From a virus (taxonomy: Duplodnaviria; Caudoviricetes): a stretch of DNA of 55,110 nt. The translations under genes were made by a program, and so were the position numbers. The notes below the pieces were generated by a model. It made no database searches. It worked only from the letters and a program-made list of their open reading frames with translations, and had not been told where the DNA came from. Shown here one piece after another: positions 1 through 54,997 of this stretch (the stretch's first letter is position 1; the number at the start of each line of letters is the position of its first letter). Location: the IMG/VR virus record IMGVR_UViG_3300018476_000016, positions 1-55,110 of that record, one strand, 5' to 3'.

Positions 1-123
1 GAATCAAAGACGAGACGGGTAGACGGAGAGAACCATGCGACATTGGTGGATCCGAGCCGCCCAGGGGGGAGGGCACCTTGTTCCGGGGGAGGGGTGGGGG
101 GTAAGGTGGGGGGATGAGGAGAG
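1..123 (+). repeat. Left terminal inverted repeat (123 bp)
   Basis: 1-123 is the exact reverse complement of 54988-55110; identity stops after ...GGGATGAGGAGAG. Confidence 0.97.
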
Positions 124-434
124 AGAGCGAAGAGAAGCTCACCCGCCAGGGGGAGGAGATGTTGTCCACCTTCCTGGCTTACGTGGACGGTTACCGCATG
201 GGCCTCCAGGACTGCCAGGGCGACCTGGACCGCGTCATGGAGGCCGAGGGTGTCGGGCTGACCGGACTACAGGTGGCAGCGGCACTGTCCGCCCGGATCG
301 CCCAGTCCGACACTGAGGCCAAGCGGACCCAGGAAGGGTTCCTTGCCCGCCGACAGTTGATGACGTCCAGGGACGACGACCAGGAGTACCGCGACGCCTA
401 CCGCGCCATGGAGATCCAGTCGGGGGACACGTGA
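114..434 (+). CDS. Hypothetical protein (start codon inside the terminal repeat)
   Basis: 106-aa ORF, high GC3, overlaps the next gene (GTGA). Confidence 0.7.
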   Translation: MRRESEEKLTRQGEEMLSTFLAYVDGYRMGLQDCQGDLDRVMEAEGVGLTGLQVAAALSARIAQSDTEAKRTQEGFLARRQLMTSRDDDQEYRDAYRAMEIQSGDT

Positions 435-823
435 TGAGGGTCCTGGTGGCCGGGTCACGCACGTGGGGTGACGAGGAGAGCGTCAACCGGGTCCTGCAAT
501 GGGCCTACGGGCTGGCGGTCGCGTCGGGCCGGTGGCAGTTCACCGTCGTGGAGGGTTGCTGCCCGACTGGCGCGGACCGCCACGCCACGAACTGGGTGAC
601 CAGGCATGCGGGCAAGTGGAACGTGGTCCCGATGAGCCTGGAGCACCACCCGCCCAAGGGTCACGGGTCGCTGTACCTGAAGCAGCGCAACGTGGGGATG
701 GCGGACTCCAGGCCGGACCTGGCGTTCGTGTTCATGAAGGGCCAGACCCCGGGCAGTATGCACATGATCGATGAGTTGGCGCTTCGTGGGGTAACCACCT
801 ATGTGGTCCCATGGACGAAGTGA
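431..823 (+). CDS. SLOG-family (YspA/DUF2493-like) protein
   Basis: MRVLVAGSRTW..., VVEGCCPTGAD, RNVGM, GSMHMI motifs typical of phage SLOG proteins. Confidence 0.8.
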   Translation: MMRVLVAGSRTWGDEESVNRVLQWAYGLAVASGRWQFTVVEGCCPTGADRHATNWVTRHAGKWNVVPMSLEHHPPKGHGSLYLKQRNVGMADSRPDLAFVFMKGQTPGSMHMIDELALRGVTTYVVPWTK

Positions 824-837
824 GAGGAGGGGCAACC

Positions 838-1083
838 ATGTCCCAGTGGACCAAGAGCACGCACAGCACCACCGACGTGACCTGCCTGGAGGTGAGTCCC
901 CGTTGGGTGAAGTCCTCGCGGTCGGCGAACCAGGGCCAGTGCGTGGAGGCGTCCAGGCCGACCGATCAGGTCGTGGCGGTCCGTGACAGCAAGGAGCAGC
1001 ACCCGGGGGGCACCGTCCTGGTGTTCACCGGCAACGAGTGGACCACCTTCGTCGAGGGTGTCAAGGGAGGCGACTTTGACTAG
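838..1083 (+). CDS. DUF397 (BldB-like) protein with duplicated N-terminal motif
   Basis: WTKSTHS..CLEV and WVKSSRS..CVEA, VAVRDSK, LVFTGNEWTTF; GAGGAG RBS. Confidence 0.9.
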   Translation: MSQWTKSTHSTTDVTCLEVSPRWVKSSRSANQGQCVEASRPTDQVVAVRDSKEQHPGGTVLVFTGNEWTTFVEGVKGGDFD

Positions 1084-5728: not shown

Positions 5729-6687
5729 GCCACCACGGCATCCTGGTGTGCCTGGACAAGTCCCACCTCGAACTCGATGAGGCACTGACCCTGGCGCTTG
5801 CCCCGTTCGATGAGAACATGTCGGTCGAGCCGCACCGTGACTACGTGCAGGGTGGCCCGGCCGACTTCTGGATGACCGAGTACCTCACCAAGCAGGGCTG
5901 GGACTTCAGCGGAGGTGACCTGACCTGGCTGCGGGTGCATTCGGCCATCAAGGCCACCTCGGACCTGGACGAGGGCGGGGAGTACCTCTATGACGAGGAC
6001 ATGGACCGCATGTACGTCATGTCCACGTACAACCCGCAGTCCAAGTGGGACTGGTGGTCGATCGGTGGCCGCTGGAGCCAGGCCCTCGTCACGGTCAAGG
6101 ACCCGGACCCGACCCTGCTCATCAACGCGGTCGAGGGTGGCAACCACGGTTGGCGTCCACGCCCTCAGGCGGGTCGGCTACGTGCTGACGGTGCACGGAT
6201 GGACCAGGTGTTCTGGGACGCGATGCGGGCCGAGCGCCGTGACGACGTGGCGCGGATGTGGGACGTGTGGGTGGACCAGGTGGTCGCAAAGACGCCACCC
6301 CTGGTCCACCGTTGGTCGGACCTGGCTGACCGGGCGAAGATGGGCGACGCCACCTGGGACGAGGTGCGTGCCTTGTACAACTCCCAGCCACGGGTGGCAC
6401 GTCTGCGTGACAAGGAAGTCCTGGACGTGCTCGGCTACATGGTCAACGCTGAGGCGTACGAGTACGGCAACCGCGACGACGACCTTGAGGTCGCCTACCG
6501 TGAGGGCGGGCTCCAGTACGCCACCCTCACCAAGGAGGGTCAGTGGATGGACCCGGGTGACATGGGCTGGTTCGGCATGTCCAACGACACCCCGGACTCC
6601 CGGCACGTGTACTTCAACGAGGCCCGTCGCTACGTGGACGGCCTGGACCCCCATGACTGGGTGGTCGTCGTGGACGTGCACATCTGA
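5725..6687 (+). CDS. Conserved phage hypothetical protein
   Basis: YNPQSKWDWWSIGGRWS, GDMGWFGMS, VVVDVHI end. Confidence 0.8.
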   Translation: MSHHGILVCLDKSHLELDEALTLALAPFDENMSVEPHRDYVQGGPADFWMTEYLTKQGWDFSGGDLTWLRVHSAIKATSDLDEGGEYLYDEDMDRMYVMSTYNPQSKWDWWSIGGRWSQALVTVKDPDPTLLINAVEGGNHGWRPRPQAGRLRADGARMDQVFWDAMRAERRDDVARMWDVWVDQVVAKTPPLVHRWSDLADRAKMGDATWDEVRALYNSQPRVARLRDKEVLDVLGYMVNAEAYEYGNRDDDLEVAYREGGLQYATLTKEGQWMDPGDMGWFGMSNDTPDSRHVYFNEARRYVDGLDPHDWVVVVDVHI

Positions 6688-7202
6688 TGGAGGGGCGAGA
6701 TGCGTACGTCCCCATCCTCACCTTCACCGTCCTTGGTCGACCAGTGCCGCAGGGCTCTGTTCGCAACCTCGGGAAGGGGCGCCCGTCCATCCACGGCAAC
6801 GCTGACGACCTCATCCCCTGGCGCAACCAGGTACAGCTTGCCGCCGAACAGGCCATCCGAACTGTCCACGGGGCTGACGGTCTCCTTGACCGTCTTCTTG
6901 CCAGCGACAGCCAGCCAGTGTTCCCGGTCCTTGACGCGGTCTCAGTGGTATGCAACTTTACCTGGCCCAAGCCAACCGCAGCCCCCAAGCGACGCAAGAC
7001 CTACCCAGTGTCTCGTCCCGACTCGGACAAACTGGCACGGGCGGTCCTTGACTCGCTGGGCTTCGCGGGTGTCTACAAGGACGACAGTCAGGTCATCGAC
7101 CTGAGGTCGACCAAGTCGTACCCGAACGAGGGGCCGTGGGCGCTGCACGTGCCCGGGGTCAAGGTGACCGTGTACCGCATCGTGTGGATGGAGGAGGAGT
7201 GA
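6687..7202 (+). CDS. rusA: RusA-family Holliday junction resolvase
   Basis: GRPVPQGS, RPDSDKLARAVLDSL, YKDDSQVIDL. Confidence 0.92.
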   Translation: MEGRDAYVPILTFTVLGRPVPQGSVRNLGKGRPSIHGNADDLIPWRNQVQLAAEQAIRTVHGADGLLDRLLASDSQPVFPVLDAVSVVCNFTWPKPTAAPKRRKTYPVSRPDSDKLARAVLDSLGFAGVYKDDSQVIDLRSTKSYPNEGPWALHVPGVKVTVYRIVWMEEE

Positions 7203-26933: not shown

Positions 26934-28940
26934 CTACATCGTCCTAACCGCTAGTCGCATGTCCCGCATAGCGATCTGGGACTCCAGTTGCCCTGCCACA
27001 GCCCTGCCTGCCGTTGTCGCCTGAGTCTCGGTGGGCTGCTGTCCGTAGAAGTTCAGGTTGGTGTTGAACACGCTGCCGGCGACCTGTGCCGATGCCGTAC
27101 GGATGACCCCCACCTGGGACTCCATGCCGGCTGCGAGGTCCTTGACGAGTGCCTGGCCCCGGTACAAGGCATAGCCGCTGCCGGACAGCGGTCCGACCTG
27201 TGCGGGGGACCCGGGCAGCCATGCGGTGATCGAGGCGACGATCGACTTCACTTTGCTGATGAGCCAGTTCTTGCTGTTCTCGATGCCGGTACCGATGGCG
27301 TTGATGAGTCCACGCCCAGCGTTGATCCCGGCGTTCCACAGGTCCCGGGCGATGTTGGAGACGAAGGTGCCGATGCGTCCGGGTAGTTGGCGGAAGAAGT
27401 CGGCGACGGCCTCGATGGCCTTGGCGAACGCGTTGACGGCGCTGTCCTTGAACTTCTTGAAATCCTCGATGCGCCGGTTTACCCAGTCCAGGACCTTCTT
27501 GTCGAACTCGATGATCTTCCCGCCGAGGAACTCGAAGAACGCCAGGATCGCCTCGCCAGCGGCCTGGAGTCCGGCGGTGAACAGGACGAACGCGTAGATC
27601 AACCCGAAGGTCAGGTCGATGAACAGCTTGCCCCAGAAGACGAGACCCTCGAAGAACTTCTGCCCGGCCGGGGACTCCAGCAGGAAGATCAGCCGGTTGA
27701 GGCCCTCGACCAGTTCATCGATGAGCCCCTTGCCACCGGCCTTGTCCAACTGCTCCATGAACGTCTTCACGAACCCGACCAACCCATCGAACAGGTTGAA
27801 AAGGGAGTTCAGGGTCTTGACCATCGAGTCCAGCCACTCCTGGAACTTCCCCGAGGAGACCTGCTGGGACAGCCACTGCCCGAAGGACTTGAACTCCTGG
27901 TTGAACAGCCGTCCCAGCCGCTCCAGGAACGGGATCGCTGCTGTGGAGGCGGCGATCAGGCCCTTCAGGAACACGGTCAGCGACGGGGTGAACTCCCCCA
28001 GCCAGCGCAGGGTGGCCGGGATGACGGTCTCCAGGAACGTCTTGAACGTGGGCGAGGCGAAGAACAGGGCGATCTGGCGGAACAGGAACCCCAGCGAGGT
28101 CGCCAACTGGGGTAGCCCTCCACGCAGGACCGGTTCCAGGGCCTGGAAGACCTTGGTGACGCTGTTGCCGAACGCGGCGAAGAAGTTCTCCTGGAGCAGC
28201 AGTTTGATCTGCTTGAAGAAGTCCCGCACCGGGAGCAGGGACCGTACGAAGTCCTTGGCCGAGGGTGCCAGGCCGTTCATGGCGACCAGCAGTTCGTGGG
28301 CGTTCTTCGCGGCGAACGCACCCTGGATCGCTTTGCCCATCCCATCGAACGCGAGCATCAGCACACCGGCCTGGAGCCCGATGGCGCCAATGAGGGCGGG
28401 GATGGTGGCCAGGACCGCCACGAGGGCATTCGCGGCCTGCACGGCTGCCAGGATGACCCCGACGAGGCCGCCCACGGCAATGGCGAGCACGGAGATGAGG
28501 GGCGACTTGCCGCTGACGTTGAACCCGGCCCCGATGGCGTCGGACAGTCCTTCACCGATCTGGGAGAAGGGCCCCCCGGGTCGGGACAGGACGTTGAACG
28601 CTTTCTCGGTCTCCTCGCGGAACATCTCCACGAACCGGCCACCGAGGTCACGGATGCGCCCGGACCGGTCGATGCGGAACCAGTCCCCATCGATCTTGAT
28701 CTTCGCTGCCCGTGCGCCCTTCTCGAACTCCTTGATGACCCCGGGCAACTGCTTGCGGATCTCGGTACGGGTGCCCTCACCCAGGTGCTTGCCCCAGTTC
28801 TCGCCGACCTTCTCCATGAGGGCGTCGGACTGCTTGCCGATCTTGTCAAGGTCCTTGGGCAGTTCACGCCGGAACGGGTCAGTGTCCGCGTGCACCTCGA
28901 TGTAGGCATCCCCGAGCGAGTCCGCCAACGCAGCCACCAC
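26934..28940 (-). CDS. Tape measure protein
   Basis: LGDAYIEVHADT start, amphipathic helices, LPGSPA..GPLSG end. Confidence 0.88.
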   Translation of the reverse strand: MVAALADSLGDAYIEVHADTDPFRRELPKDLDKIGKQSDALMEKVGENWGKHLGEGTRTEIRKQLPGVIKEFEKGARAAKIKIDGDWFRIDRSGRIRDLGGRFVEMFREETEKAFNVLSRPGGPFSQIGEGLSDAIGAGFNVSGKSPLISVLAIAVGGLVGVILAAVQAANALVAVLATIPALIGAIGLQAGVLMLAFDGMGKAIQGAFAAKNAHELLVAMNGLAPSAKDFVRSLLPVRDFFKQIKLLLQENFFAAFGNSVTKVFQALEPVLRGGLPQLATSLGFLFRQIALFFASPTFKTFLETVIPATLRWLGEFTPSLTVFLKGLIAASTAAIPFLERLGRLFNQEFKSFGQWLSQQVSSGKFQEWLDSMVKTLNSLFNLFDGLVGFVKTFMEQLDKAGGKGLIDELVEGLNRLIFLLESPAGQKFFEGLVFWGKLFIDLTFGLIYAFVLFTAGLQAAGEAILAFFEFLGGKIIEFDKKVLDWVNRRIEDFKKFKDSAVNAFAKAIEAVADFFRQLPGRIGTFVSNIARDLWNAGINAGRGLINAIGTGIENSKNWLISKVKSIVASITAWLPGSPAQVGPLSGSGYALYRGQALVKDLAAGMESQVGVIRTASAQVAGSVFNTNLNFYGQQPTETQATTAGRAVAGQLESQIAMRDMRLAVRTM

Positions 28941-33762: not shown

Positions 33763-35499
33763 TTACGCGCAGACGATGGTCTGCTGGTTGCCGGTCCGGC
33801 CGCTCGGGCAGATCGGCACGGTGTAGACCCGCGACAGCGGGCACATGCGGATCATCTTCCAGCCGGTCTCCGTGAACAGGTGGGTGACCTGGTTGGTGGC
33901 CAGTTTGGTCGAGTCGTACACCGAGTTCAGCGTGATCACGTCGGAGACTGCCCGGACCCACGTACCTGCCGGGTAGACGATGAACTGGAGGGTCGACGGG
34001 AACGCGGAGATCGGCGTCGCGAGGCCCGGCATACCGGTGACGGCGCCGTTGGTCGCGAACGCGTCCTGCCAGTCGTAGACGAACTGCGGCCGGGCGCCAC
34101 GCTTCGCGAACGCGGAAGTGATCTCCGCGTCGGCGAGGGTGAGCGTGTTGGCGTAGTCGCCACCGTTGCGCCGCACCCAGTCCGCCCGCATCTGCGCGAG
34201 GATCCAGAACGGCAGCACGACCTCAAGGGTCGCCGACTGCTGCATCCGCAGCCGGTACTTGATGTCGACGGTCGCCATCTCCACGGCCGACATGACCTGG
34301 GACACGACCGAGGAGTCGGTGGACCACGGGTTCGCGGCAGTCAGGTTGACCGCAGTCGAGTCAGCGATGATCGCGGCGATCTGGAGGGCGTTGACCTGGT
34401 GCGCGGACGCGGCCATGGCACCCTTGACGAACGCTGCCGTGAACTCCGGGTAGCCCCGGATCGACAGGATGTTGCCGGTCAGGCAGAGGCCGGTGACACC
34501 GAGCCGGTCGTCCACGAAGGACGGGCACGGGATCTCCAGGCAGGTCTTGGTGGTGCCAGCGGCGACCTGGGCCTCGGTCAGGTTGAAGAAGCCCGTGGTG
34601 CCAGAAGCCGGACCGGCGAAGATCGTGCCGAAGTCCAGGCCCGTGTTGTGCCGGATGCCGCCACGCCGTGCCTGGACCTCAGGGGCGTCCAGCAGACCGT
34701 CGGTGGTGATCTGGAGACAGATCGAGTAGTCCGTCTCGGACGGGGCACACCAGCCGGCCGCTGCGACGAGGGCGTCGCCACTACCGGTGGACTCGATCTC
34801 CTTGCGGCGCATCTCGACCGCGTTCAGCAGGGACCCGCCCGGCAGCCGCTTCTCGTCAATGACGTTGAGCAGCTTGGCGTAGTCGGTGGCGTCACCGTCA
34901 ACGCTGAACTCGTCCGGGTAGTTACGGACCAGCTTCGCCACCGGGTAGTGGTTCACGACCGGGGCGGCACCGGCACCGGCACCGTGGCTGGTGAAGCCAG
35001 CCGACCGGGCCTCGAACGCCTTGGCCACGTCCAGCATGGAACCGAACTCGGAACCCGCCTCGTAGTCGGCGACGCCGGCTGCTGCGACCAGGGACGAGAA
35101 GCGCGGACGCTCGATGGTGAGCACAGCCGTCGCGGCCGGGGTGTCGCTGTTCTGGGCGAGCGTGGCAACGGAGACCTTGGTGGAGGCAACCACGGCCGCT
35201 ACCGGCTCCGGGTCGGGCTCCGCGTCAGTGGTGTCGTCCTCGCCCTCAGGGGCGGTGGCCGGGGTGTCCAGGGCTGCGAACTCCGCTGCCCGACGGTCAC
35301 GGCCGGTGACCTCTGCTGGGACGGTGACAAGGGTGAACTCGTGCAGTTCACGCAGTCGCGCGATCTGCTCGTCGGTGACGGTCTCGGGGGTAACGCTCGC
35401 CTTGAGTGCGTCGTACTCGGCCTTGGCCTCGTTCACCATGCCGCTGAGAGCGGTGACGGTGAACTGCCCCAGGTTCGAGTCTGGGATCTGGAAAGTCAT
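33763..35499 (-). CDS. Major capsid protein (hexamer-type, with N-terminal scaffold-like extension)
   Basis: LVAAAGWCAPSETDY, DAPEV..RGGI, YPAGTWV, YDS..L..N...LFTE. Confidence 0.88.
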   Translation of the reverse strand: MTFQIPDSNLGQFTVTALSGMVNEAKAEYDALKASVTPETVTDEQIARLRELHEFTLVTVPAEVTGRDRRAAEFAALDTPATAPEGEDDTTDAEPDPEPVAAVVASTKVSVATLAQNSDTPAATAVLTIERPRFSSLVAAAGVADYEAGSEFGSMLDVAKAFEARSAGFTSHGAGAGAAPVVNHYPVAKLVRNYPDEFSVDGDATDYAKLLNVIDEKRLPGGSLLNAVEMRRKEIESTGSGDALVAAAGWCAPSETDYSICLQITTDGLLDAPEVQARRGGIRHNTGLDFGTIFAGPASGTTGFFNLTEAQVAAGTTKTCLEIPCPSFVDDRLGVTGLCLTGNILSIRGYPEFTAAFVKGAMAASAHQVNALQIAAIIADSTAVNLTAANPWSTDSSVVSQVMSAVEMATVDIKYRLRMQQSATLEVVLPFWILAQMRADWVRRNGGDYANTLTLADAEITSAFAKRGARPQFVYDWQDAFATNGAVTGMPGLATPISAFPSTLQFIVYPAGTWVRAVSDVITLNSVYDSTKLATNQVTHLFTETGWKMIRMCPLSRVYTVPICPSGRTGNQQTIVCA

Positions 35500-40035: not shown

Positions 40036-42481
40036 CGGTGGCTCCCTCCTGGTCGGGTTGTCCGTCCCCGTCATTGTCCTCGCCCGGGGTGTCCTCAACG
40101 ATGGAGAACCTGGCGTCCAACTGTCGGGTCAGCATGGCCGGCTCGCCGTAGACCGGGTCCACACCCGGTACGGCTGGCGGTTCCTCGCCCATGGCCGCGA
40201 ACAGGTCCGCCAGTTGCCGGGCCCGCTGCCACTGGAGGATGGCCTGCTCGTCGGCCAGGATCTCCTCCAGCAGCCACGCCCGGTCCTGCTGGTCGCCGTC
40301 GGTGTCCTTGGCCACCTCGAACTCCACCTGGTGGTCGGGCTCCATGCCCTCGTGCATCACAGACCCGGCCGCTACCAGCGACATCTGCTCCCCGTCGGCG
40401 TCCATCTCGAACACGGGGAACGCCGGGACGTTCACTGCCAGTGCTGCCGTGAGTTCGAGGTTGCCGTCCACGCGACGCCAGTCCCCGGACAGTGGGGAGC
40501 GACGCAGTTTGGCGACCTTCTTGGCATCCGCTTCGGGGACGACGGCACCGGCCACCCAGATGCCGAACTCGTCCTCGCCGGCCCGGACCACAGCAACCTC
40601 GTCGCCGGTGTTGTCGTAGTGGATGGCCGCTGCGGCGTAGCGCAGGTTGGTCCCGGCGTGACGGGTGTCCATGACGATCTTGCCGACGCGGATGCTGTCA
40701 CCCTCAGCCGTGAACACCTCACCCAAGTGGAACGGGGCGTAACCCTTGCGGGAGCGGGGTGCCAGGACGCAGGCGTTCATCGTCACGTCACGGTGGCACT
40801 CGTTCCAAGCGGCCAGGTGCCCGAACACCCGACCGCTCGGGTCCACCGACAGTGGGGTCTTGCTGGACAGTTGTGGGTCATCGAACCACTTGCGGGGTGG
40901 CGCGACCGGGAACTGCCTCGTGGTCCGCACAGCGTACTCGTAGTCGTCCATGCTCATGTCCTGTCGCTCGGTGTCCACGACCACCCCGTAGCGCTTGAGG
41001 GCAGCCGCGATCCGACCCTTGATGGCCTTGAGTTCGTCAGGGCTGTACTCGGCCGCGTTGTCGGCCTGGTTGATGTAGGACCAGGCGGCACGGCAGTGCT
41101 CCTCCGAGTCCAAGGGGTAGCGCTTCTTCCCGTCGTCCTGGTAGCCGGGATCCGCGTACTTCACGTCCCCGTATGGCTCTTTGGGGTCGGCCGCGTAGTC
41201 GACACTCATGCCCTGCTCCCTCGCGGTGACTGCTGCCGGGCTGTCCCATGGTGCCCGGATGGACGAGTCGTTGAACGCGGACGCCATCTCAGGGTAGATC
41301 TCCGAGATGACCCCGCGCAGTGCCGCCTTGTCCCTGTCCGGCACGTTGGGCAGCCCGCCGTGCGCCCCGGACAGCAGGGCGGCAGCCGCATAGATGGCGT
41401 GGTAGACCATGGTCAACCGGCCGTTGATGATGTCCCCGACCGGGAGCCGGTAGCTGGTCACGTCGGTCTCGGGCAGCCGGTCGTCACGCCACATGAACGC
41501 CTGGCGCAGTTTGGCAACGTCCTGGCCACCGCTGGACCATGCGGTGATCCGCTTGACCGCGTCATCGTTGTCGAACACGGCCTCACGTACAGCTAGTGGG
41601 AGCCCGTGCCACCCGGACGGGTTGACCGTGAACGCCTGGCCAGGAACCTCTTCCACTGCGGCCTCGCCACATCCGCAGTCTGGTGTGCCTGGGTCCATGT
41701 CCAGAGCAGAGTGATCCATGTCTGGGTCGTCGTCGGGCCACTCCCCCTCGGTCAGGTTGACCAGTCGCATACCGTCGAACGCGGCGATCCGCACGAGTGT
41801 GGCCCCACCCACGGTGAACAGGGTGATGTGTTCGTCGCCGGTCTCCGGGTTGATGGTGACCCGCATCCGACCGCCCGGGTCCACACTGGCCCCGGCCACA
41901 CCCTGCTCAACGAGGTAGCGGGCCTCGGTCACCTCGGGGACAATGGACGCGTCCAACCAGTCGCCCCAACCCCACATGAACTCCTGGCCCGTGTGGTCGG
42001 GACCGACACCCACACCGAGGATCCGGCCCACGGTGACCGCACCCGCGTGACCGTTGGCGTCCACGCGACGGTGGGCCAGGGGCAGTGGCAGGACCCGGTG
42101 GTCCAGGGCGCCGTGCTCGAAGATGCGCGACCGGCCTGGCTCCCCGGTGGGACGGTTGATGGGCGCAAGGGGCCCTGCCCACAGGTCGTCACCGAGGACC
42201 TGCTGGGATGCCAACAGCACCTGTGCGGCGGCAACGAGGGCCTCGGATGGTGCCTCCATGGCGTGCTCGGCGCTGCCGTGGCCGGGAGGCCCACCTGTGG
42301 CCTTGGTGTGCAGGATGTTGCACAGGCCCTCAGGGTTGGTGGGGAAGTACTTGCGCAGCGCCCGGACACAGCGCTTGAAGTCGCCGGGCATGTTCCACCG
42401 GATCTTGGCGGCACCCTTACCGGTGAGCCAGAAACGCATTAGAGCCAATGGCATGCCCCGGGCCGGGTTCGGGTCGACCAT
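39998..42481 (-). CDS. Capsid maturation protease-like multidomain protein
   Basis: Position after MuF; GAAKIRW..GDF.RC, DUF6582-like YADPGYQDDGKKRYPLD, GRVFGHLA.W..CH, SGDWR. Confidence 0.78.
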   Translation of the reverse strand: MVDPNPARGMPLALMRFWLTGKGAAKIRWNMPGDFKRCVRALRKYFPTNPEGLCNILHTKATGGPPGHGSAEHAMEAPSEALVAAAQVLLASQQVLGDDLWAGPLAPINRPTGEPGRSRIFEHGALDHRVLPLPLAHRRVDANGHAGAVTVGRILGVGVGPDHTGQEFMWGWGDWLDASIVPEVTEARYLVEQGVAGASVDPGGRMRVTINPETGDEHITLFTVGGATLVRIAAFDGMRLVNLTEGEWPDDDPDMDHSALDMDPGTPDCGCGEAAVEEVPGQAFTVNPSGWHGLPLAVREAVFDNDDAVKRITAWSSGGQDVAKLRQAFMWRDDRLPETDVTSYRLPVGDIINGRLTMVYHAIYAAAALLSGAHGGLPNVPDRDKAALRGVISEIYPEMASAFNDSSIRAPWDSPAAVTAREQGMSVDYAADPKEPYGDVKYADPGYQDDGKKRYPLDSEEHCRAAWSYINQADNAAEYSPDELKAIKGRIAAALKRYGVVVDTERQDMSMDDYEYAVRTTRQFPVAPPRKWFDDPQLSSKTPLSVDPSGRVFGHLAAWNECHRDVTMNACVLAPRSRKGYAPFHLGEVFTAEGDSIRVGKIVMDTRHAGTNLRYAAAAIHYDNTGDEVAVVRAGEDEFGIWVAGAVVPEADAKKVAKLRRSPLSGDWRRVDGNLELTAALAVNVPAFPVFEMDADGEQMSLVAAGSVMHEGMEPDHQVEFEVAKDTDGDQQDRAWLLEEILADEQAILQWQRARQLADLFAAMGEEPPAVPGVDPVYGEPAMLTRQLDARFSIVEDTPGEDNDGDGQPDQEGATDDGQQAPVPTPV

Positions 42482-43212
42482 CAGCGTCCCCTCTCCTCGT
42501 TCACGATCACCAGGTCACAGCGGCAGCCGCACACCTCGTCAGCAGGTCCCATTGGATCACCCGGATAAAGAATCCCATAGCCACCGACGTTGAACAGTTC
42601 CGTCAACCCGAGCACCTGACCATCGACATGGCGATGGGTGGCCCGCACCCGCTTGTCCTTCTCCGTGTCCCACCTTTTTCTCAAAAGGCGACCGGTCACG
42701 CGGGACTGCTCCATCCCGGCACCCAGGGTCCCTGCCCCATATGCCCGAGTTGTCTCAGTCACGGCGATATTTCTACTTCTCCCCGGCCAGTTCGGCGACC
42801 CGGTCCACGTGAGCACGTCGTCCACGGCGGCAGCGGTAGCCTCGATGTCACCACCCCCGTTGACGGAGTCGATGATCGCCTCGAACACGAGGTTGTACAC
42901 CTCGTCAGGGATGTTGACGAGGAAGTTGCGGGTCTGGGCCAACTGGGAGATGACGAACGCATGACGACTGACGACCGGGACATCGGTAGCCTCGGACCAG
43001 GCTTGGAACGCTATCTTGCCGATCTCGCTGAGGATCGTGGAGTCAACGTCCGTGGTCCAGGCGTCCTGGACCTGGTACACGCCGCTTGGGTCCGGTTGCA
43101 GCCGATGCTGGACCCAGGGACGCATTACAGCCTCACGAGCCACCTGGAGCCAGGACCGCAGGGACCGGCTGACGACCTGGTACAGGTTGTCTTCCGCGCT
43201 GTCCCTACCCAT
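42481..43212 (-). CDS. MuF-like minor head protein
   Basis: IAVTETTRA, K.W...D.RVR.TH...GQ, YPGDP.GP..EV..CRC. Confidence 0.88.
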   Translation of the reverse strand: MGRDSAEDNLYQVVSRSLRSWLQVAREAVMRPWVQHRLQPDPSGVYQVQDAWTTDVDSTILSEIGKIAFQAWSEATDVPVVSRHAFVISQLAQTRNFLVNIPDEVYNLVFEAIIDSVNGGGDIEATAAAVDDVLTWTGSPNWPGRSRNIAVTETTRAYGAGTLGAGMEQSRVTGRLLRKRWDTEKDKRVRATHRHVDGQVLGLTELFNVGGYGILYPGDPMGPADEVCGCRCDLVIVNEERGR

Positions 43213-45121
43213 GGTCCAACAGTCCTCTGTCCCGAAGTTCGATACCTAGTCTCTCGGGTAGGTGAGGCAGTCCCGCCACAAGGAGTTTGACGCAGTAGTC
43301 GTCCAGCGTCTGGCGTAGCTCCTCATGGTCGACGGTCAGGTTGACCGCGTCAGCGACGAGGGCGAACTGGCCCCACGCGCCGGCCAGGACCCTCTGCGCC
43401 CGGTCCACACCGCCGACGGGGATGACGGTGTGCAGGTCGTGGTGCGGGGTGTCCTTGAACTGGCCGCGTGTGGCCGGGGTGAGCAGACGCTTCCCAGCCA
43501 CCTCCAGGGCACGCAGGACGGTGGCGTTGGCGATGCCGAACGTGGTCATGGCACTTGCCACGGACGCGGACGCGGTCACCCCTGCTGGCTGTACGGGTCC
43601 CCCGGGGGCGTTCTGGGCGGTTGACGGTTCCAGCGGTATCGGGCCACCCGGGGTGGGGGCGATCCCGGTCGGCGGGGCCGGTGGCGGGGGCGGACCGGCC
43701 CCGGGTGTGCCGGGCGGTAGGGCTGGGGTGACGACAGCATCGGCGGGGAGCATCTCCTCGGTGACGCCTGCGAGTTGCCGGACAGCAGGCATCTGGATCA
43801 TGGCGGGGTCGCGGAGCATGAGTTCCTTGATGAACCGCATGACCGTCTCTTTGTCGTCCGGCGCGGCCGTGATGGCGTAGTCACCGGCCAGGAGCACCTC
43901 GGCAGCCGACACGACACCCTTGTCGTACAACTCCAGGGTGTCCTTGAGCCGTTGCGGGCGCACAGTGAGTGGAGCGGTGTCGAAGTGGAACACGTACCGG
44001 TCCGGGTCGACCTTCATCGACTTGAGGGCCGGCTTCAGGTAGGCCGTGGTGAGCGCGTCACAGATGCGGGTCATCAGCGGTTCGATGTGGACCTTGATCT
44101 GTCCCTCAACGATCTGCCACGCACCCCAGTGGTTGGCCTCGGCCGCACCAGTCAGGATCGACGGGTCGATGTCCATGGCGAGGGCGAACCGCCGGATGGC
44201 CTCCGAGCGCAGGTCCAGGGCCTGGCGGGACAGTTCGGAGGTGAACTGGATCAGGTCGATCTTCCCCAGCGCCTCGATGGGCATCTCCACGAACGTGGGC
44301 ACCACACCTGCGGCCGTGCCGTCCCCGCGCAGGGACGCCGCACCGGTCCGCATGAGCTTGGTGGTCAGCGCCTCGGCCCCGGTCAGGTTGTCGTCCTCCT
44401 CGGGGAAGGAGATCTCCTTGGGGATCGGCATGAGACCAGCGGAGATGAGCCGGGAGTCGATCTGGGCGAACACGTACCGGGTCAACCGTTCGATCTCGAA
44501 CAGCATCGGCATGGCAGCCCGGGTCGGGGAGTCGGCCCAGTGCATGCGACGCGGGTGCGGCGTCCAGATACGGATGATCACGTCGTTGTCCGGGTCCAGG
44601 GTCTCCTTCTGCCCGTCCGGCCACACGATGGAGACGTTCTGGCCCCACCGCTTCAACTCCGAGCAGGAGACAACCATCCACTCGTCATTGTCGGGGTCGT
44701 CCGTGCCCCGGCCGACGATGTAAGCGTCCCCGGCGATGGTCAGGTTGATGCCGAGCATCCGCAGGGCCTCGGCCTTGGACGGCGGGGAACCGAACAGGGT
44801 GTCAGCGAGCCCGGCGACCTTCTTCTTCGTGGTCTCCTGTTGGATGCGACCGTTGTCGTCCACATCGGCCACGTAGATCCGCACCCGGGAGCACGCGGAC
44901 CCGATCCAGTTGGCCACGAACCGCAGTTCGCCGATCAGGTCGTAGAGACGCCACGCCTCCTGCTGCCAGGAGTCGTCCCCGAAGCGGTAGGTGCGCCACC
45001 CTTGACCGTCGAGCTTGTTGGTCAGCCTGGCCGCTGAGGCGACCAGGCTCTTGGGGGTGGCGTGGATGTCAGGGGCGCTGGGGGCTGATTCGATGGCCTT
45101 GTGCCGCCCGAAGCGTGGCAT
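43205..45121 (-). CDS. Portal protein
   Basis: WQQEAW.LYD.IGEL, W.PHPR..ADSP, ANHW.AW; follows the terminase. Confidence 0.85.
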   Translation of the reverse strand: MPRFGRHKAIESAPSAPDIHATPKSLVASAARLTNKLDGQGWRTYRFGDDSWQQEAWRLYDLIGELRFVANWIGSACSRVRIYVADVDDNGRIQQETTKKKVAGLADTLFGSPPSKAEALRMLGINLTIAGDAYIVGRGTDDPDNDEWMVVSCSELKRWGQNVSIVWPDGQKETLDPDNDVIIRIWTPHPRRMHWADSPTRAAMPMLFEIERLTRYVFAQIDSRLISAGLMPIPKEISFPEEDDNLTGAEALTTKLMRTGAASLRGDGTAAGVVPTFVEMPIEALGKIDLIQFTSELSRQALDLRSEAIRRFALAMDIDPSILTGAAEANHWGAWQIVEGQIKVHIEPLMTRICDALTTAYLKPALKSMKVDPDRYVFHFDTAPLTVRPQRLKDTLELYDKGVVSAAEVLLAGDYAITAAPDDKETVMRFIKELMLRDPAMIQMPAVRQLAGVTEEMLPADAVVTPALPPGTPGAGPPPPPAPPTGIAPTPGGPIPLEPSTAQNAPGGPVQPAGVTASASVASAMTTFGIANATVLRALEVAGKRLLTPATRGQFKDTPHHDLHTVIPVGGVDRAQRVLAGAWGQFALVADAVNLTVDHEELRQTLDDYCVKLLVAGLPHLPERLGIELRDRGLLDHG

Positions 45122-45449: not shown

Positions 45450-46880
45450 CTACCCGAGTAGCTTGGACAGGTCGTAGAAGGACTGGTTGAGGCCCAGGTC
45501 GTACTGGCTCGGGTCGGCGATGCGCATCTCACGCTTCTCGCCCAGTATGAGTTGCAGGCAGGCATGGACCATGGCGTCCATGCGGTCCGGGGACTCCCGG
45601 GTCGACTGGGGGTCGTACAGGACCATCTGGTCCTCAAGTTCGGGGAACTCGCCTACCATGTGCAGTCTTCCCTGCTCACCGCGCATGGCGACCGGCTCGG
45701 CCCGCGTCTTCTTGCCGTGGGAGGCGTGGACCGGCTTCATCGGCGGGGTGGTGTTGCGGGGGAAGGTCCCCTGGTCGACCATCTCCAGGTACGCGTCCTG
45801 GAGGACCTCCTGTAGGTACCGCTTGCCGAGGTTCTCCTCATAGGCCAGCATGTCCGCGCCGAACTCTGCCACGGCCCGCCACGCGGCCAGGGCTGCCTGG
45901 CGACCCGACCCGGCGATGGTGCGGTCGGCCAGGACGTACAGGTGCCCGTCGGCTGCGCGGCACGCCACCACGATGCCGGTCTCCGCGTCGTTGCCGGTCA
46001 GGTTGGGGTCCATGCCCACCACGGTGGACACGATGGCGTCGGGAACATCGGTGACCCGGTTCTTGAGGATGTCGGATCGGTTGAACAGGCCACCACCGGA
46101 CAGTTCGATCAACTTGCCGTACAGTTCCTGCTCCCCGAGCAGGGTGCCGTGGTAGCGCTTCTTCAGTTCGTTGAGCACGTGCGCGGACAGGTTCGTGGAG
46201 TTGTCGAACGTGGACCCGGTAATGACATGTACTGTCCCGTCATCACGTGTCAGCCACTCCTGTAGCAACTTGATGGGCTTGGGGGTGGTGGTGACGAACG
46301 CCCGTGGGTGGTCCCCGATGAGGTCGGCACGCAGGGACGGCATCAGCCCCTCGTACCAGGTGGCGTCCGGCTTGACCCACTTGGCGATCTCGTCGCAGAG
46401 GATCCCGGCTGCGTTGTAGCCACGTCCGGTGTCCTCGTCGTCCGCACCCTCCAGGTAGATCTTCTGGCCGTCCGGGAACAGGAACATGGGCCGGGGGGTC
46501 TGCTTGTACCGGTGGTCGATGCGACGACGGATGAGGACGTTGCGGATGCCCGAGGGACCGTCGGCGTTGATGGTCCGGGCGTCGGACAGGGTGTCGGCCA
46601 CCACGAGCCACTCGGTGGGGATCCCGTGCCGGTCGAAGGGGTGCTGCTGGACCCTCTCCACGATCCACTCGGAACCTGACCTTGACTTCCCGGCACCGCG
46701 CCCGGCCATGTACAGGTAGATGAGTTCCGGGCCAGAGGTGGGACGCTGTTCGGGGCGTGCGGTGAACCACCACTCGCCCCGGTTCATCTCCTCGATGACC
46801 TGCTCAGGCAGGGATGCCAGCAACGCAAGCCGCTCCTGGCGTGGCAGGATGGCGATCTGCTGTGCGATGGACAGTCCCAT
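45450..46880 (-). CDS. Terminase large subunit
   Basis: Walker A AGRGAGKS, Walker B LCDE, TTTP, nuclease VGMDP and SPDRMDA. Confidence 0.95.
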   Translation of the reverse strand: MGLSIAQQIAILPRQERLALLASLPEQVIEEMNRGEWWFTARPEQRPTSGPELIYLYMAGRGAGKSRSGSEWIVERVQQHPFDRHGIPTEWLVVADTLSDARTINADGPSGIRNVLIRRRIDHRYKQTPRPMFLFPDGQKIYLEGADDEDTGRGYNAAGILCDEIAKWVKPDATWYEGLMPSLRADLIGDHPRAFVTTTPKPIKLLQEWLTRDDGTVHVITGSTFDNSTNLSAHVLNELKKRYHGTLLGEQELYGKLIELSGGGLFNRSDILKNRVTDVPDAIVSTVVGMDPNLTGNDAETGIVVACRAADGHLYVLADRTIAGSGRQAALAAWRAVAEFGADMLAYEENLGKRYLQEVLQDAYLEMVDQGTFPRNTTPPMKPVHASHGKKTRAEPVAMRGEQGRLHMVGEFPELEDQMVLYDPQSTRESPDRMDAMVHACLQLILGEKREMRIADPSQYDLGLNQSFYDLSKLLG

Positions 46881-47153: not shown

Positions 47154-47561
47154 ATGGTGGACAGCGAGACGGACCCGGTCGTCCTGGGGCGCAGTGTCGT
47201 GGTCAACGGAGCCCTGGGGGAGTTGCGCAGCACCCTGAAGTGGTCGTGCAACGCGATGGCTGAGGCCCTGGCCGTGTCACCCATCACCTACGGCAAGTGG
47301 GAGCGGCGCCCAGACACGAGGCTGTGGACTGGGACGGCCAGGCGTGTGGGGGACTTCTACCGCCGTGCCGCCCAGGAATTAGTGGATGTTGAACTCATCG
47401 ATGAGTTTACACCTTTCTATAAGGTGGCCATGTACCTGGGTGTGCCGCAGGAGATGCTGGTCAAGGGCTACCGGCAGGGCCGGTACGAGGGGGAGGACTG
47501 GGGAGTGCTGGGACTGTGGATGCACCGTGACGACCTGGCCGAGTTGACCGGTCGCCGATGA
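47154..47561 (+). CDS. XRE-type HTH DNA-binding protein
   Basis: LR..LKWS...MAEALAVSPITYGKWE; second HTH-like segment VAMYLGVP. Confidence 0.78.
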   Translation: MVDSETDPVVLGRSVVVNGALGELRSTLKWSCNAMAEALAVSPITYGKWERRPDTRLWTGTARRVGDFYRRAAQELVDVELIDEFTPFYKVAMYLGVPQEMLVKGYRQGRYEGEDWGVLGLWMHRDDLAELTGRR

Positions 47562-48400
47562 GCAAGAGACCCCTCACGTGTGTGGCCTGCGGGGAGCCGC
47601 TGGTCCAGTACGACCCGAACGTGTTCGTCCACCCGGCCTGCGACCCGTTCAACGTGGCCGACGAGTCCGAGGCGGACTGGGTCAAGGCCGAGATGACCAA
47701 GATCATCAAGTGGGCGGACTCCCACTCGCCTCGCTCGTTGCAGACCAACCTGGGACCATCCGAGCTTGGCAGTCCCTGCGACCGGCGCCTGGGCTACCGG
47801 ATGGCTGGGACGCCAGAGTGCAACAACAACCGTGACCCGTGGGCGGCGATCGTGGGCACGGCGATCCACAAGTGGTTGGAGGACGCCACCAACCGGTGGT
47901 GCACGGCCCACGCCAACACGGACTGGGTGACGGAGAAGGGCATCGAGATCTCCGAGGTCGTGTCCTCGCACCCGGACCTGTTCAACGTCCCCAAGGGCAT
48001 GGTGATCGACCACAAGAGTGTGAGCGCGGACCGGATGAAGGAGGTCCGCAAGGACGGCCCACCGATCGGCCACCAGGTCCAGGTGCACACGTACGGGTAC
48101 GCGTACGAGAGGCTCGGGTACAAGGTCAACACGGTGGGCCTGGCGTTCTACCCCCGGTCAGGGTGGTTGCGGCACATGTTCGTGTGGACGGCACCGTACG
48201 ACCGGAACGTTGCCGAACGTGCCCTTGCCAGACCTCCCTCCGTTGCGGCACAATTGGTGGGCCTAGGGGTGCTGGACAACCCGCACCGCTGGGAGCAGGT
48301 CCCCGCCGTCCCGGGCAACGACTGCGGGTGGTGTCCGTGGTACAACCCCAACAGGACCGCCGAGCAGGGAGCGAGTGAGCAGGGATGTCCAGGGACATGA
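47558..48400 (+). CDS. Cas4-like/RecB PD-(D/E)xK exonuclease
   Basis: LGPSELG.PC.R, GTAIH, PD...IDHK, QVHTYG, C.WCPW. Confidence 0.88.
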   Translation: MSKRPLTCVACGEPLVQYDPNVFVHPACDPFNVADESEADWVKAEMTKIIKWADSHSPRSLQTNLGPSELGSPCDRRLGYRMAGTPECNNNRDPWAAIVGTAIHKWLEDATNRWCTAHANTDWVTEKGIEISEVVSSHPDLFNVPKGMVIDHKSVSADRMKEVRKDGPPIGHQVQVHTYGYAYERLGYKVNTVGLAFYPRSGWLRHMFVWTAPYDRNVAERALARPPSVAAQLVGLGVLDNPHRWEQVPAVPGNDCGWCPWYNPNRTAEQGASEQGCPGT

Positions 48401-49689: not shown

Positions 49690-49844
49690 CGCTACGGGGC
49701 GGTCGACACTGGGCCGTTCAGGGTGGATGATGGGGACTCCGGACAGGGACCCCCAAGCCTCCCCGGAAAAGCGAGAGCCCCCCGCGCCAACAGGGGGCAT
49801 CTCAGATGTTCAACTTCAATGGCGATCAACCAGGAAGGGATCTA

Positions 49845-52340
49845 ATGTCAAACGTATCAGATGCCGCCGCGAAATGGCACTCCGCTGGCGTGTCCACCAT
49901 CCCGATCATCCAGGGCGGCTCCAAGAAGCCCCTGGTCCGGTGGGCCGAGTACCAGACCCGCATCCCTGAACTGGGAGAACTCGACCGTTGGTTCGGCAAC
50001 GGCAAGGAGTACGGGCTGGCCGTCATCTGCGGTTCGATCTCCGGGAACCTGGAGATGGTCGAACTGGAGGCTGAGGCCAACAACGGCGCCACCCTGGACC
50101 GCCTGGACGTGGCCATGCGCGAGGCCGGTATCGAGGACCTGTGGACCGAACTGACCGTGGGCCAGTACGCCTACCTGGAGTCCTCGCCGTCGGGTGGACT
50201 GCACATCCTGTACCGGGTCAACGACCACGCGGTGCCGGGGAACACGAAGATAGCGTGGCGCGAGGCGACCGCCGTCGAACTGGCTGTCAACCCGCTGGAG
50301 AGGTTCAAGGTCCTCGTGGAGACCCGTGGTGAGGGCGGTTACGTGATCGTGGCCCCGACCACCGGCCTGTGCCACCCGACCGGCAAGCCGTGGGAACTGG
50401 CCACCGGCACCTACGGTGAGGTCCCGTACATCACGTGGGACCAGCGTGAGGCATTGATGCGGGTGTTCTGTGAGACACTGGACGAGTCTCCTCAGACACC
50501 AGCCCCACTGCCCGATGCGGTCGCTACCTCCCCAGGCCAGCTAGCCCCGCGCAGTGGGGCTGGTCTGTCCCCGGGTGACGAGTTCGAAGCCAGCACCGAC
50601 TGGGCGCAGATCCTGGAGCCGCACGGGTGGCAGTTGGAGTCCCAGCACGGGTTCACCCGCAACTGGACCCGACCGGGCAAGGAGCGCAGGGACGGGGCGT
50701 CGGCGACGACCGGCCGGGCCAGTGACCGGGACCGGTTGTACGTGTTCTCCACGTCCACGCAGTTCCGCTCCGAGACCCCGTACACCAAGTTCGGTGCCTA
50801 CGCCCTGCTCAACCATGGCGGGGACCACTCCGCTGCGGCCAGGACGTTGGCCCGACTCGGGTTCGGCGAGCGTCCCGTAGCAGACATGGACGCGTTCATT
50901 GCCACGTCAACAGTTGCCACCACAACCACTGACGTGGCAGTTGTTGAGCAGTCAACTAGCGTCGCGCCTGAACCCACGTTCACGTTGACGGAACGCGGCA
51001 ACGCGGAGCGTCTGTGGCACCAGGTGAAGGGCCGCTACCACTGGGTTGGCGATGCCAAGGCGTACTACGCGTGGGATGGCAAGGTGTGGGGCGAGGACTC
51101 CTCCGGGGCGATCAACCGTGAGCACCGGGCGATGCTGGACCGGATGACCGCTACAGCCCGGGTCACCAACGACGAGGACCTGGCGAAGTGGACCATCGGC
51201 TCGTGCAGTGAGCGCCGCGAGACGGCAGCCCTGAAGATGATGCGGTCCACTGAGGGTGTGGCCAGGTCGCAACGCGACTTTGACGCCCACAGCGACCTGG
51301 TGAACGTGCGCAACGGGATGCTCAACCTGAGGACTGGGCAACTGTCTGCGCATGACCCGTCGCTGATGATGACTCGCATCCTCGACGCCGAGTACCGTCC
51401 GGGCGCGCAGGCCCCCATGTTCCAGGCGTTCCTGGAGAAGGTGCTACCGGACCCGGAGCTACGGGCGTACGTGCAGCGGTGTGTGGCGTACAGCCTGTAC
51501 GGGCAGCCGAACGAGCGGGCCATCTTCATGGCGTACGGGCCGAAGTCGACGGGCAAGTCGACGTTCATGGAGATCATCGGCCAGGTGCTGGGGTCGTACG
51601 CGGCAACCGCGCCGGCCGGGACGTTCAAGCAGGCCCGCCACGACAAGGGGCCCTCGGCCGACCTTCACATGTTGCGGGGCAAGCGGTTCGTGGCGACGTC
51701 GGAGTCCAGCGACTCCGCGCAGTTCGACGAGGACCTGATCAAGCGGATCACGGGTGGGGACACGCTCACCTCCCGGGCCCTGTACCAGGACCACCAGACG
51801 TGGCGCCCGGAGTGTTCGGTGTGGCTGGCCACCAACTTCCCGCCCCGGTTCAACTCCGACGACGACGCGATCTGGGACCGGGCGAAGCTGATCCCGTTCA
51901 CTACGCAGATCGACGTGACGGACCGGGTGCCCGGACTGTCCAGGCTCATCGTGGAGGGCGAGGCGGCGGGCGTGCTCAACTGGGTCATGGAGGGCATGAC
52001 CGCCTACCTGGCCCACGGGTTGGGTGAGCCGTCCCAGGTGACGCAGGCGGCTGTGGCGCACCGTGACTCGACCGACCCGGTGATCCGGTTCCTGGACGAG
52101 CGAGCGGCGACCGGGGTGGTCGTGGTGGAGGACGGCGCCATCGTCTCACTGAGCAACCTGTACCCGGCATTCAAGGCGTGGTCCGAGGAGAGCGGTGTGC
52201 GGGCCCTGTCGCAGATGCGGTTCCGTGACCGGTTGGCGTCATCGGGTCGCGGGCTGCGGGTGGCTGGGGTCATGGTGAGTGGGGTGCGGATCAACTCCCG
52301 GGCCGGGTTCCTGGGGACCATGATCCCCGACATTGAATGA
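49845..52340 (+). CDS. Primase-polymerase (PrimPol) / D5-type SF3 helicase
   Basis: KKP...W..YQ, SPSGGLH, ETRGEGGYVIVAP; GPKSTGKST, ITGGD.L..R, TNF.P. Confidence 0.92.
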   Translation: MSNVSDAAAKWHSAGVSTIPIIQGGSKKPLVRWAEYQTRIPELGELDRWFGNGKEYGLAVICGSISGNLEMVELEAEANNGATLDRLDVAMREAGIEDLWTELTVGQYAYLESSPSGGLHILYRVNDHAVPGNTKIAWREATAVELAVNPLERFKVLVETRGEGGYVIVAPTTGLCHPTGKPWELATGTYGEVPYITWDQREALMRVFCETLDESPQTPAPLPDAVATSPGQLAPRSGAGLSPGDEFEASTDWAQILEPHGWQLESQHGFTRNWTRPGKERRDGASATTGRASDRDRLYVFSTSTQFRSETPYTKFGAYALLNHGGDHSAAARTLARLGFGERPVADMDAFIATSTVATTTTDVAVVEQSTSVAPEPTFTLTERGNAERLWHQVKGRYHWVGDAKAYYAWDGKVWGEDSSGAINREHRAMLDRMTATARVTNDEDLAKWTIGSCSERRETAALKMMRSTEGVARSQRDFDAHSDLVNVRNGMLNLRTGQLSAHDPSLMMTRILDAEYRPGAQAPMFQAFLEKVLPDPELRAYVQRCVAYSLYGQPNERAIFMAYGPKSTGKSTFMEIIGQVLGSYAATAPAGTFKQARHDKGPSADLHMLRGKRFVATSESSDSAQFDEDLIKRITGGDTLTSRALYQDHQTWRPECSVWLATNFPPRFNSDDDAIWDRAKLIPFTTQIDVTDRVPGLSRLIVEGEAAGVLNWVMEGMTAYLAHGLGEPSQVTQAAVAHRDSTDPVIRFLDERAATGVVVVEDGAIVSLSNLYPAFKAWSEESGVRALSQMRFRDRLASSGRGLRVAGVMVSGVRINSRAGFLGTMIPDIE

Positions 52341-54638: not shown

Positions 54639-54899
54639 TCAGGCATTCTTGGCCCGTCTCCTCTTGGCAATCCGCTCCCGGAAGTCGGCAACCTTGGTGT
54701 GGTCCGTGGGCCACCGCCAGATGCCACCGTCCTCCACGAGACCCTTGGTGCTGGGATCCAGGCAGTGTCCGTGCTCGCGGTGCAGGTCGAAGCCTGAAGC
54801 GCCGCCGAACAGCCGACAGCACGTGGGGCACAGCGCCTGTGACGGGGTCGGGGACCTGCCACAGCGTCTCATGCCAGGTAATGGTGCCTGGTCGGTCAT
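54639..54899 (-). CDS. Phage FDxHR zinc-binding protein
   Basis: C..C.R.FGG..GFDLHR...CLDP; GAGGAG RBS. Confidence 0.75.
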   Translation of the reverse strand: MTDQAPLPGMRRCGRSPTPSQALCPTCCRLFGGASGFDLHREHGHCLDPSTKGLVEDGGIWRWPTDHTKVADFRERIAKRRRAKNA

Positions 54900-54907
54900 C
54901 TTACTCC

Positions 54908-54997
54908 TCATTTCCCACTCACTCTGACCACGGTGGCGACGTAGCAGCCCACGAGGACCACTGCCACCAACAGCATCAGTACGAAGACTCTCCTCAT
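54908..54997 (-). CDS. Small membrane peptide starting inside the right terminal repeat
   Basis: MRRVFVLMLLVAVVLVGCYVATVVRVSGK; uses the mirror image of ATG 114. Confidence 0.5.
   Translation of the reverse strand: MRRVFVLMLLVAVVLVGCYVATVVRVSGK

Follow-up and report, generated by a model that had tools for sequence, protein, structure and literature searches.

A phage record that begins and ends with the same sequence in opposite orientations raises the question of whether those ends are the ends of a DNA molecule. The record examined here is the window, by which we mean the whole stretch of 55,110 nt that was analyzed; in IMG/VR it is a metagenome-assembled contig of the class "inverted terminal repeats" (ITR) with a completeness of 100. 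Positions 1-123 (+) are the 100% reverse complement of positions 54988-55110 (−), just as the original prediction, made from the sequence alone, had claimed in describing perfect 123-bp inverted ends. The 123-nt pair stands alone, there being no other exact repeat of at least 21 nt within the 55,110-nt window, and chance is therefore excluded as its source.

The repeated sequence includes a start codon. An ATG at 114-116 and its mirror image at 54995-54997 both lie within the 123-nt repeat, and each starts an inward-reading frame, so that the same ATG (114 and 54997) opens frames at both ends, as predicted. On the left this is a gene of 106 aa (114..434, +; GC3 0.87), whose ATG and first three codons lie within the repeat and whose product has no Pfam or PHROG match. 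On the right it is an ORF for a 29-aa hydrophobic peptide (54908..54997, −; GC3 0.77), which has its start codon and first three codons in common with 114..434. Small hydrophobic peptides are also found at the position of the first right-side ORF in relatives of this phage (designated here by G numbers), namely, G002, G007, and G009. At least four runs of G lie directly upstream of the shared ATG (window 65-113; mirror 54998-55046), and a G-rich pattern precedes the shared ATG in the compared relatives except G003; to judge from the sequence, these runs could form a G-quadruplex in the leader. A candidate start-associated motif, GGGAGGGGT, was considered and set aside as not convincing (5 matches against 1.5 expected, with 3 of 100 shuffles reaching 5).

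Both ends of the window run on into a single contig

Scanning metagenome contigs with window positions 1-40 yielded one contig besides the window itself, L005, of 1701 nt. L005 ends in 123 nt identical to window 1-123, which on the opposite strand are also the final 123 nt of the window; beyond these 123 nt, sequence comparison found nothing common to L005 and the window. L005 adds 1578 nt past both window ends, the same sequence at each. Positions 1 and 55110 are thus the ends of an assembled contig, and the sequence runs on past both. An overlap that stops exactly at a contig end is the pattern of adjacent contigs in a de Bruijn graph.

L005 is present, whole or in part, in 11 public runs, four of which were compared with it, as contigs only. 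In run X1, L005 is one unbroken contig of 1701 nt with a depth of 22.5 and without a variant bubble at k=31. A contig of 6316 nt (depth 10.1) overlaps L005 1-30 by both its ends, in opposite orientations, and L005 1672-1701 is overlapped by two contigs, one of 10158 nt (depth 13.1) and one of 9440 nt (depth 12.8). In whole-contig means, the depth of L005 is therefore about twice that of its single-copy neighbors (22.5 against 10.1, 12.8, and 13.1), the depths of the latter matching imperfectly (10.1 against ~13). X1 does not count as independent of the IMG/VR record, because it may be the source sample. The 10158-nt and 9440-nt contigs, which putatively lead from the repeat into the two ends of the window, break at ~10.2 and ~9.4 kb, where the window has no repeat of at least 21 nt; the breaks may be due to coverage, to strain variants, or to k-mers that other organisms have in common. 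Related variants of L005 occur in X2 and X4 (95-99% alike) and in X5 (two pieces 95-99% and one 90-95% alike), and a contig of X2 stops at the same inner boundary, L005 1701.

Because the large region and a small one each meet L005 at both of their ends, we read L005 as a two-copy inverted repeat. The resulting map is quadripartite. Its large region, of 54,864 bp, is the window without the 123-nt tip at either end; there follow the 1,701-bp repeat, a small segment of ~6.26 kb, and the same repeat again, inverted and identical in sequence. The lengths sum to a circle of ~64.5 kb (54,864 + 2 × 1,701 + ~6,256), which may stand for a circularly permuted or terminally redundant molecule. According to this reading, to which we assign a probability of about 90%, the "inverted termini" are the overlap that an assembler leaves at a collapsed repeat. 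The evidence for a second full copy consists of graph topology, depth, and end overlaps; the small segment of this phage itself (6.3 kb) is known by its length, its depth, and its 30-nt overlaps, its content being taken from relatives. The outermost part of the repeat, L005 1-40, had no match in the viral contig collection. The window is then ~85% of the genome, as against the 100% of its label.

These results bear directly on the two accounts that the original prediction had offered. The first, an undescribed linear-end or replication strategy, does not hold, since both ends enter L005 and L005 joins both ends of the 6.3-kb segment. The fallback, in which the assembly broke at the segment between two copies of a divergent cassette, is correct in essentials, for the repeat supplies the leader, ribosome-binding region, and start codon for two genes. 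The very outcome that the prediction had named as fatal to linear ends was obtained at the level of contigs: both ends extend into one connecting sequence, which gives a circular map with an internal inverted repeat. Its remark that no terminal-protein or protelomerase gene is recognizable agrees with ORF and six-frame scans (in which the protein-primed polymerase control gave no match), and this missing end-replication machinery needs no explaining, because the contig ends are not real DNA ends.

Gene content and probable host

The window is a siphovirus-type tailed-phage genome. In keeping with the description of it as that of a terminase-encoding tailed phage, it encodes a terminase large subunit (TerL) of T4 type (Terminase_6; 45450..46880, −), which is 63-83% identical to those of its relatives, and a portal protein (43205..45121, −; PF04860 at 24.5 bits, below the curated cutoff of 39.1). 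The remaining virion genes recognized are those for a MuF-like protein (42481..43212, −; PF04233), the major head protein (33763..35499, −; phrog_777, E 1e-123), a head-tail adaptor (31032-31829), the major tail protein (31910-32611), and the tape measure protein (26934..28940, −; phrog_305, E 1.6e-54). Replication is represented by a PrimPol/D5-type helicase protein (49806..52340, +; PF09250, PF08706, PF19263, and PF03288), and there are two candidate recombination functions, a PD-(D/E)XK exonuclease (47558..48400, +; phrog_1674, E 1e-63) and a RusA-like Holliday junction resolvase (6687..7202, +; phrog_140, E 1e-21). Close to the ends of the window lie genes for a SLOG/YspA-like protein of 130 aa (431..823, +; PF10686, E 5e-8; phrog_289), a DUF397 protein of 90 aa (811..1083, +; PF04149, E 2e-22), and a phage FDXHR zinc-binding protein of 86 aa (54639..54899, −; PF24071, E 2.4e-8). 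An HNH endonuclease and two ParB-like proteins are also encoded, together with a single tRNA-Met (10773-10847), the gene for which is bracketed by an imperfect inverted repeat (10012-10200 against 11047-11229; 71% over 189 nt).

Three further features of the window deserve mention. A 984-aa protein of the head module (35991-38945, −) has an ADP-ribosyltransferase exoenzyme domain (PF03496, E 2.8e-6), and the MuF-like gene (42481-43212, −) lies ~3.5 kb away in the same module; judged by sequence, the pair looks like virion-associated enzymatic cargo. A block after the tail genes (15309-21903, −) encodes three glycosyltransferases, a UDP-glucose dehydrogenase-like protein, a nucleotide-sugar epimerase, and a C-methyltransferase, and may serve the modification of virion or host-surface glycans. 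Divergent from TerL there is a gene for a 145-aa protein (47124-47561, +) with a weak helix-turn-helix match, which was kept in 6/6 relatives tested (37-56% identity).

Megablast of both window halves returned no close relative in culture, and in tblastn TerL is at most 37% identical to that of any cultured phage. The GC content of the window is ~65%. The DUF397 genes and the distant TerL matches, which are mostly to actinophages, suggest an actinobacterial host.

The repeat and the genes that it carries

Read from the small region inwards, L005 consists of ~595 nt of noncoding DNA with short direct repeats; ORF1, of 107 aa (L005 596-919), which reads towards the large region; ORF2, of 113 aa (L005 1277-936), on the opposite strand; an AT-richer leader of ~420 nt (GC ~50% over L005 1301-1500); and, at the inner end, the G-rich stretch and ATG that are the first 123 nt of the window. 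The window thus holds the innermost 123 nt of each copy, 1..123 (+) with its ATG at 114-116 and 54988..55110 (−) with its ATG at 54997-54995. ORF2 has no confirmed relatives in the viral contig collection, and a second small gene stands beside ORF1 in the repeats of some members of the clade.

The inner edge of the repeat falls 0-22 nt past the shared ATG in 6/7 genomes, the exception being G003, where it lies inside an ORF. An inner edge placed just past a start codon means that two different genes use one leader, one ribosome-binding region, and one ATG, and in the compared genomes one of the two genes that use the shared start is often that of a small hydrophobic peptide. In G002 the outer edge falls, on either side, at the stop codon of the last gene of the small region. 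In the relatives, small-region genes read outwards from the middle and on through the repeats, in the direction of ORF1, to enter the large region at both ends.

ORF1 has 106 homologs with an invariant DPRF-EAGIRV core, to which no source assigns a function (where a name is given, which is seldom, it is hypothetical protein), and between genomes ORF1 is only 45-57% identical. A total of 21 of 29 homologs match phrog_645, labeled "RNase E," which is the sole family match of ORF1; there is no match in Pfam. A profile search against the PDB gave a designed helical protein as its best match (E 0.39). The predicted structure is that of a confident helical protein (pLDDT 88), for which Foldseek found nothing in the PDB at E ≤ 0.001 and a wide structure comparison (VIA) found generic helical hairpins (best Z 5.9). 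When the ORF1 profile was run against 185,579 species genomes, there was one weak match, in a Terriglobia metagenome-assembled genome (L141 10001-10153; 35% over 57 residues, E 9e-5), which is uninformative about the host and yields no complete copy. Most ORF1 homologs (84/104 with data) are on contigs shorter than 3 kb, but since that collection consists mainly of short contigs, we set this aside as too weak a sign that the repeat collapses.

Just upstream of ORF1 lies a partly palindromic element of 23 nt, GTGCATGTTKATATGCATSTTTG (L005 548-570), which shows little or no variation among six aligned relatives amid otherwise diverged noncoding DNA. It is also present in the repeats of G002, G003, G005, G008, and locus L115, and it is absent from the 55-kb window even when 3 mismatches are allowed. 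It is a candidate promoter, operator, or packaging site. Rfam had no match in L005, and a promoter scan of L005 gave one weak sigma-70-like site against 0.4 expected, which we do not count as evidence.

Could the repeat be a packaging module, in which ORF1 is the small terminase subunit (TerS), pac lies in the noncoding part of the repeat, and packaging starts from two inverted sites? Searches with Pfam and PHROGs recognized no TerS gene beside TerL, the ORF upstream of TerL on its strand (46970-47287) is not conserved in 6 relatives, and there is the conserved 23-nt element upstream of ORF1. Moreover, the viral structures in BFVD that the ORF1 model resembles most include proteins annotated as TerS (ranks 1, 5, and 17; E 0.07-0.8, the best being 0.069). 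These matches are all nonsignificant, however, with TM scores of 0.35-0.45, and the PDB gave generic helical hairpins; in addition, ORF1 lacks a sequence match to any phage record in tblastn, its only family is the one labeled "RNase E," and ~9 kb of DNA, including oppositely oriented genes, separates it from TerL. The identification of ORF1 as TerS is only a lead from a structural model, and we regard a packaging role for the repeat as unlikely.

The same arrangement in related phages

TerL relatives at 63-83% identity comprise 77 loci, and 12/15 of the relatives examined show a like signature at their contig ends. In each of three of them, G002, G004, and G014, a single contig holds the large region, the repeat, and the small region, with inverted copies of both repeat boundaries at its ends. 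G002 (63,230 bp) is made up of a large region (97-57160), a repeat of 1353 bp (57161-58513), and a small region of 4606 bp (58514-63119); its left end (1-96) is an inverted copy of 57161-57256, and its right end (63120-63230) is an inverted copy of 58403-58513, so that the second repeat copy is represented by its two edges alone, at the contig ends. In G004 (59,237 bp), with a large region at 5886-59119, a repeat of 1526 bp, and a small region of 4256 bp, the left end (1-103) is the inverse of 4360-4462 and the right end (59120-59237) is the inverse of 5768-5885. In G014 (64,011 bp), with a repeat of 1172 bp and a small region of 5616 bp, the corresponding pairs are 1-121 with 57155-57275 and 63943-64011 with 58258-58326. 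An inverted copy of the inner boundary is found at one contig end in G001, G003, G008, G013, and G016, and one of the outer boundary is found at a contig end in G011 and G015.

In all, 12/15 relatives, which come from separate assemblies (the count of 15 leaves out G010), have a contig end that matches a repeat boundary at 100% in inverted orientation; a comparison confined to the ends and repeat regions found no such match in G005, G006, and G012. None of the 15 long relatives has two ORF1 matches on one contig, and no contig in the collections searched carries both repeat copies, as expected because short reads cannot span the repeat. The CheckV completeness values of the relatives (84-100%) correspond by arithmetic to full lengths of 62-66 kb, in accord with the 64.5 kb of the map.

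These relatives also bear on the possibility that the graph is chimeric, two or more co-occurring strains or phages sharing a 1.7-kb module that is present once in each. The samples are complex soil and sediment metagenomes, variants of the repeat that are 90-99% alike occur in other runs, and the single-copy depths in X1 differ somewhat (10.1 and ~13), all of which would suit a mixture. What a single-copy genome cannot give is the attachment of both ends of both regions to the module in opposite orientations. The topology recurs, moreover, in 12/15 relatives of different assemblies, including three (G002, G004, and G014) in which both boundaries are at the ends of a contig, and at k=31 L005 forms one contig free of variant bubbles. 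We therefore consider a chimera very unlikely and retain the two-copy inverted repeat.

The small region and inversion

The segment between the two copies differs greatly from one relative to the next. Among five small-region proteins of G002, one has homologs in 2/11 relatives' stretches, one has a homolog in 1/11, and three have none. Not one of the 10 small-region proteins of G002 and G004 has a Pfam or PHROG match, and none resembles a tail fiber.

A phage segment of a few kilobases flanked by inverted repeats brings to mind a programmed switch, in which a site-specific invertase, as for the G segment of Mu or the C segment of P1, alternates the expression of the small-segment genes. The gene for a GYD-repeat protein in the small segment indeed adjoins opposite ends of the large region in the G002 and G004 contigs, but this difference in orientation could equally be the choice of the assembler. 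Six-frame scans of the window and four near-complete relatives, which covered the small segments of the relatives, found no serine recombinase of the resolvase family (PF00239; 0/5 records, with the control matching 12/14 genomes) and no tyrosine recombinase (PF00589; 0/5, controls positive). The 10 unmatched proteins just described include nothing like a tail fiber, and the repeats are not short crossover sites but 1.2-1.7 kb of ordinary genes and leaders. Finally, because the small-segment genes read outwards on both sides, inversion would leave expression as it is. A dedicated switch is accordingly quite improbable, and like the packaging role, it ranks among the less likely rivals of the four-part map with a two-copy repeat.

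Why the ends are exactly 123 nt

The inverted ends are exactly 123 nt long in 3/3 ITR-classed records of the clade, the window, G007 (53,216 bp), and G009 (55,457 bp), and the end sequences of G007 and G009 differ from those of the window despite the common length. A biological terminal repeat would not hold an exact length while its sequence diverges, and the k of an assembler would, so that 123 nt is best understood as a signature of k. A MEGAHIT setting given in a JGI paper is --k-list 23,43,63,83,103,123, and we infer that the assembler of the window used k=123. G007 and G009 are likewise labeled ITR and 100% complete, and they lack ORF1; they are probably large-region fragments too.

We can now dismiss the reading that the ends are true physical termini, of a linear molecule of 55.1 kb with 123-bp ITRs or of ~58.3 kb with 1.7-kb ITRs, maintained by protein priming, hairpin telomeres, or another mechanism: perfect inverted ends, the IMG/VR class of ITR with 100% completeness, and the lack of identified cos, pac, or direct-repeat ends and of a recognized TerS beside TerL are what can be said for it, and it is essentially excluded by the continuation of the sequence past both window ends, by the far end of L005, which is not a tip but joins both ends of the 6316-nt contig, by single contigs of relatives that pass from the repeat into the small segment, by a length equal to the assembler k in 3/3 ITR records, by a depth of 22.5 where two linear molecules sharing the repeat predict ~46 (arithmetic), and by the absence of serine and tyrosine recombinases from the six-frame scans of the five records. 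No fold-back structure was seen at the window ends, which continue into L005. No protein-primed family B DNA polymerase was found among the ~50 window ORFs scanned with Pfam or PHROGs, and a scan for PF03175 matched 0/5 records, its control also matching no genome.

The label "inverted terminal repeats, 100% complete" is thus wrong for the window and, by the signature, for at least two relatives (G007 and G009). According to the CheckV authors, completeness was above 90% in only 33.2% of the ITR contigs for which it could be estimated, and the MetaVR paper treats ITR records as putatively complete. The window and, probably, G007 and G009 are ~85% fragments that lack a repeat and a 4- to 6-kb segment. 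Where inverted ends have the length of the assembler k, they should be taken to mark an internal inverted repeat that has collapsed and not linear ends or a complete genome.

A possible role for the repeat

The repeat is real, and it is conserved in an uncultured, probably actinobacterial, siphovirus clade. Within each genome it collapses in assembly, and it shows no bubble at k=31, yet ORF1 is only 45-57% identical between genomes; we infer that homologous recombination or gene conversion probably maintains the identity of the two copies. The RusA-like resolvase and the PD-(D/E)XK exonuclease that the phage encodes would be possible means for such recombination. Recombination between the inverted copies would, in addition, turn the small segment around, so that two isomers would arise, as they do in plastids.

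The repeat is probably a duplicated expression cassette, in which the same leader and start codon would serve two operons, and the duplication would double the dose of ORF1. From a midpoint in the hypervariable small segment, two divergent early transcription units would proceed outwards, each into one end of the large region. If the copies recombine, the phage would exist as two isomers and would possess a built-in site for the exchange of a hypervariable block of early genes.

A further-reaching reading, which we hold to be less likely than not, is that of a whole clade of uncultured soil and sediment actinophages with a plastid-like four-part genome. Homogenized repeats of 1.2-1.7 kb, pinned to the shared start codon of two operons, would bracket a hypervariable accessory segment of 4-6 kb; the repeat would be a cassette for expression (or packaging) present in duplicate, the segment would flip, and co-infecting relatives could swap it by double crossover in the conserved flanks.

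Comparison with known systems

A limited literature search, based on the parts of papers that were available, found no precedent for kilobase-scale, sequence-identical inverted repeats conserved across a phage clade. It returned papers on plastids, mitochondria, and herpesviruses in place of any on phages with large internal inverted repeats or inverted duplications; a paper on a Microbacterium phage concerns, in its available text, 18-bp motifs only.

At the level of database records, the window belongs with the false-ITR contigs produced by repeat collapse in the ITR class of CheckV and IMG/VR. It shares with them a first k-mer that is the reverse complement of the last, an end repeat of length k, and a repeat neighbor of double depth. 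Unlike other contigs of this kind, its cause is explicit, a real internal inverted repeat of 1.7 kb that recurs across a phage clade. The likeness to the protein-primed phages phi29 and PRD1 and to the protelomerase phage N15 is confined to the look of inverted record ends. Here, in contrast to those phages, the ends are not physical, and the replication genes are those for a PrimPol/D5 helicase, an exonuclease, and RusA.

The genomes of the tailed phages Mu and P1 contain invertible segments of a few kilobases, G and C, respectively, with inverted repeats at both sides. The present phages differ in that no invertase of the Gin/Cin type was found in the records scanned and no tail-fiber genes were found in the relatives' segments; their repeats are longer and hold whole genes, and inversion would not switch expression.

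A parallel can be drawn with plastid genomes, in which two identical inverted copies part a large and a small single-copy region (LSC-IR-SSC-IR) and collapse in short-read assemblies. The corresponding arrangement was found in run X1 and in G002, G004, and G014, where one and the same repeat adjoins either end of each single-copy region, in opposite orientations at the two ends. As in plastids, in which flip-flop recombination takes place, the copies are alike within a genome and diverge between genomes. The two systems differ in scale and content, the plastid repeat being ~20-25 kb with rRNA genes and the phage repeat 1.2-1.7 kb without them. In the phages, unlike in plastids, the inner edge of the repeat is fixed at a start codon, and the two isomers are a prediction.
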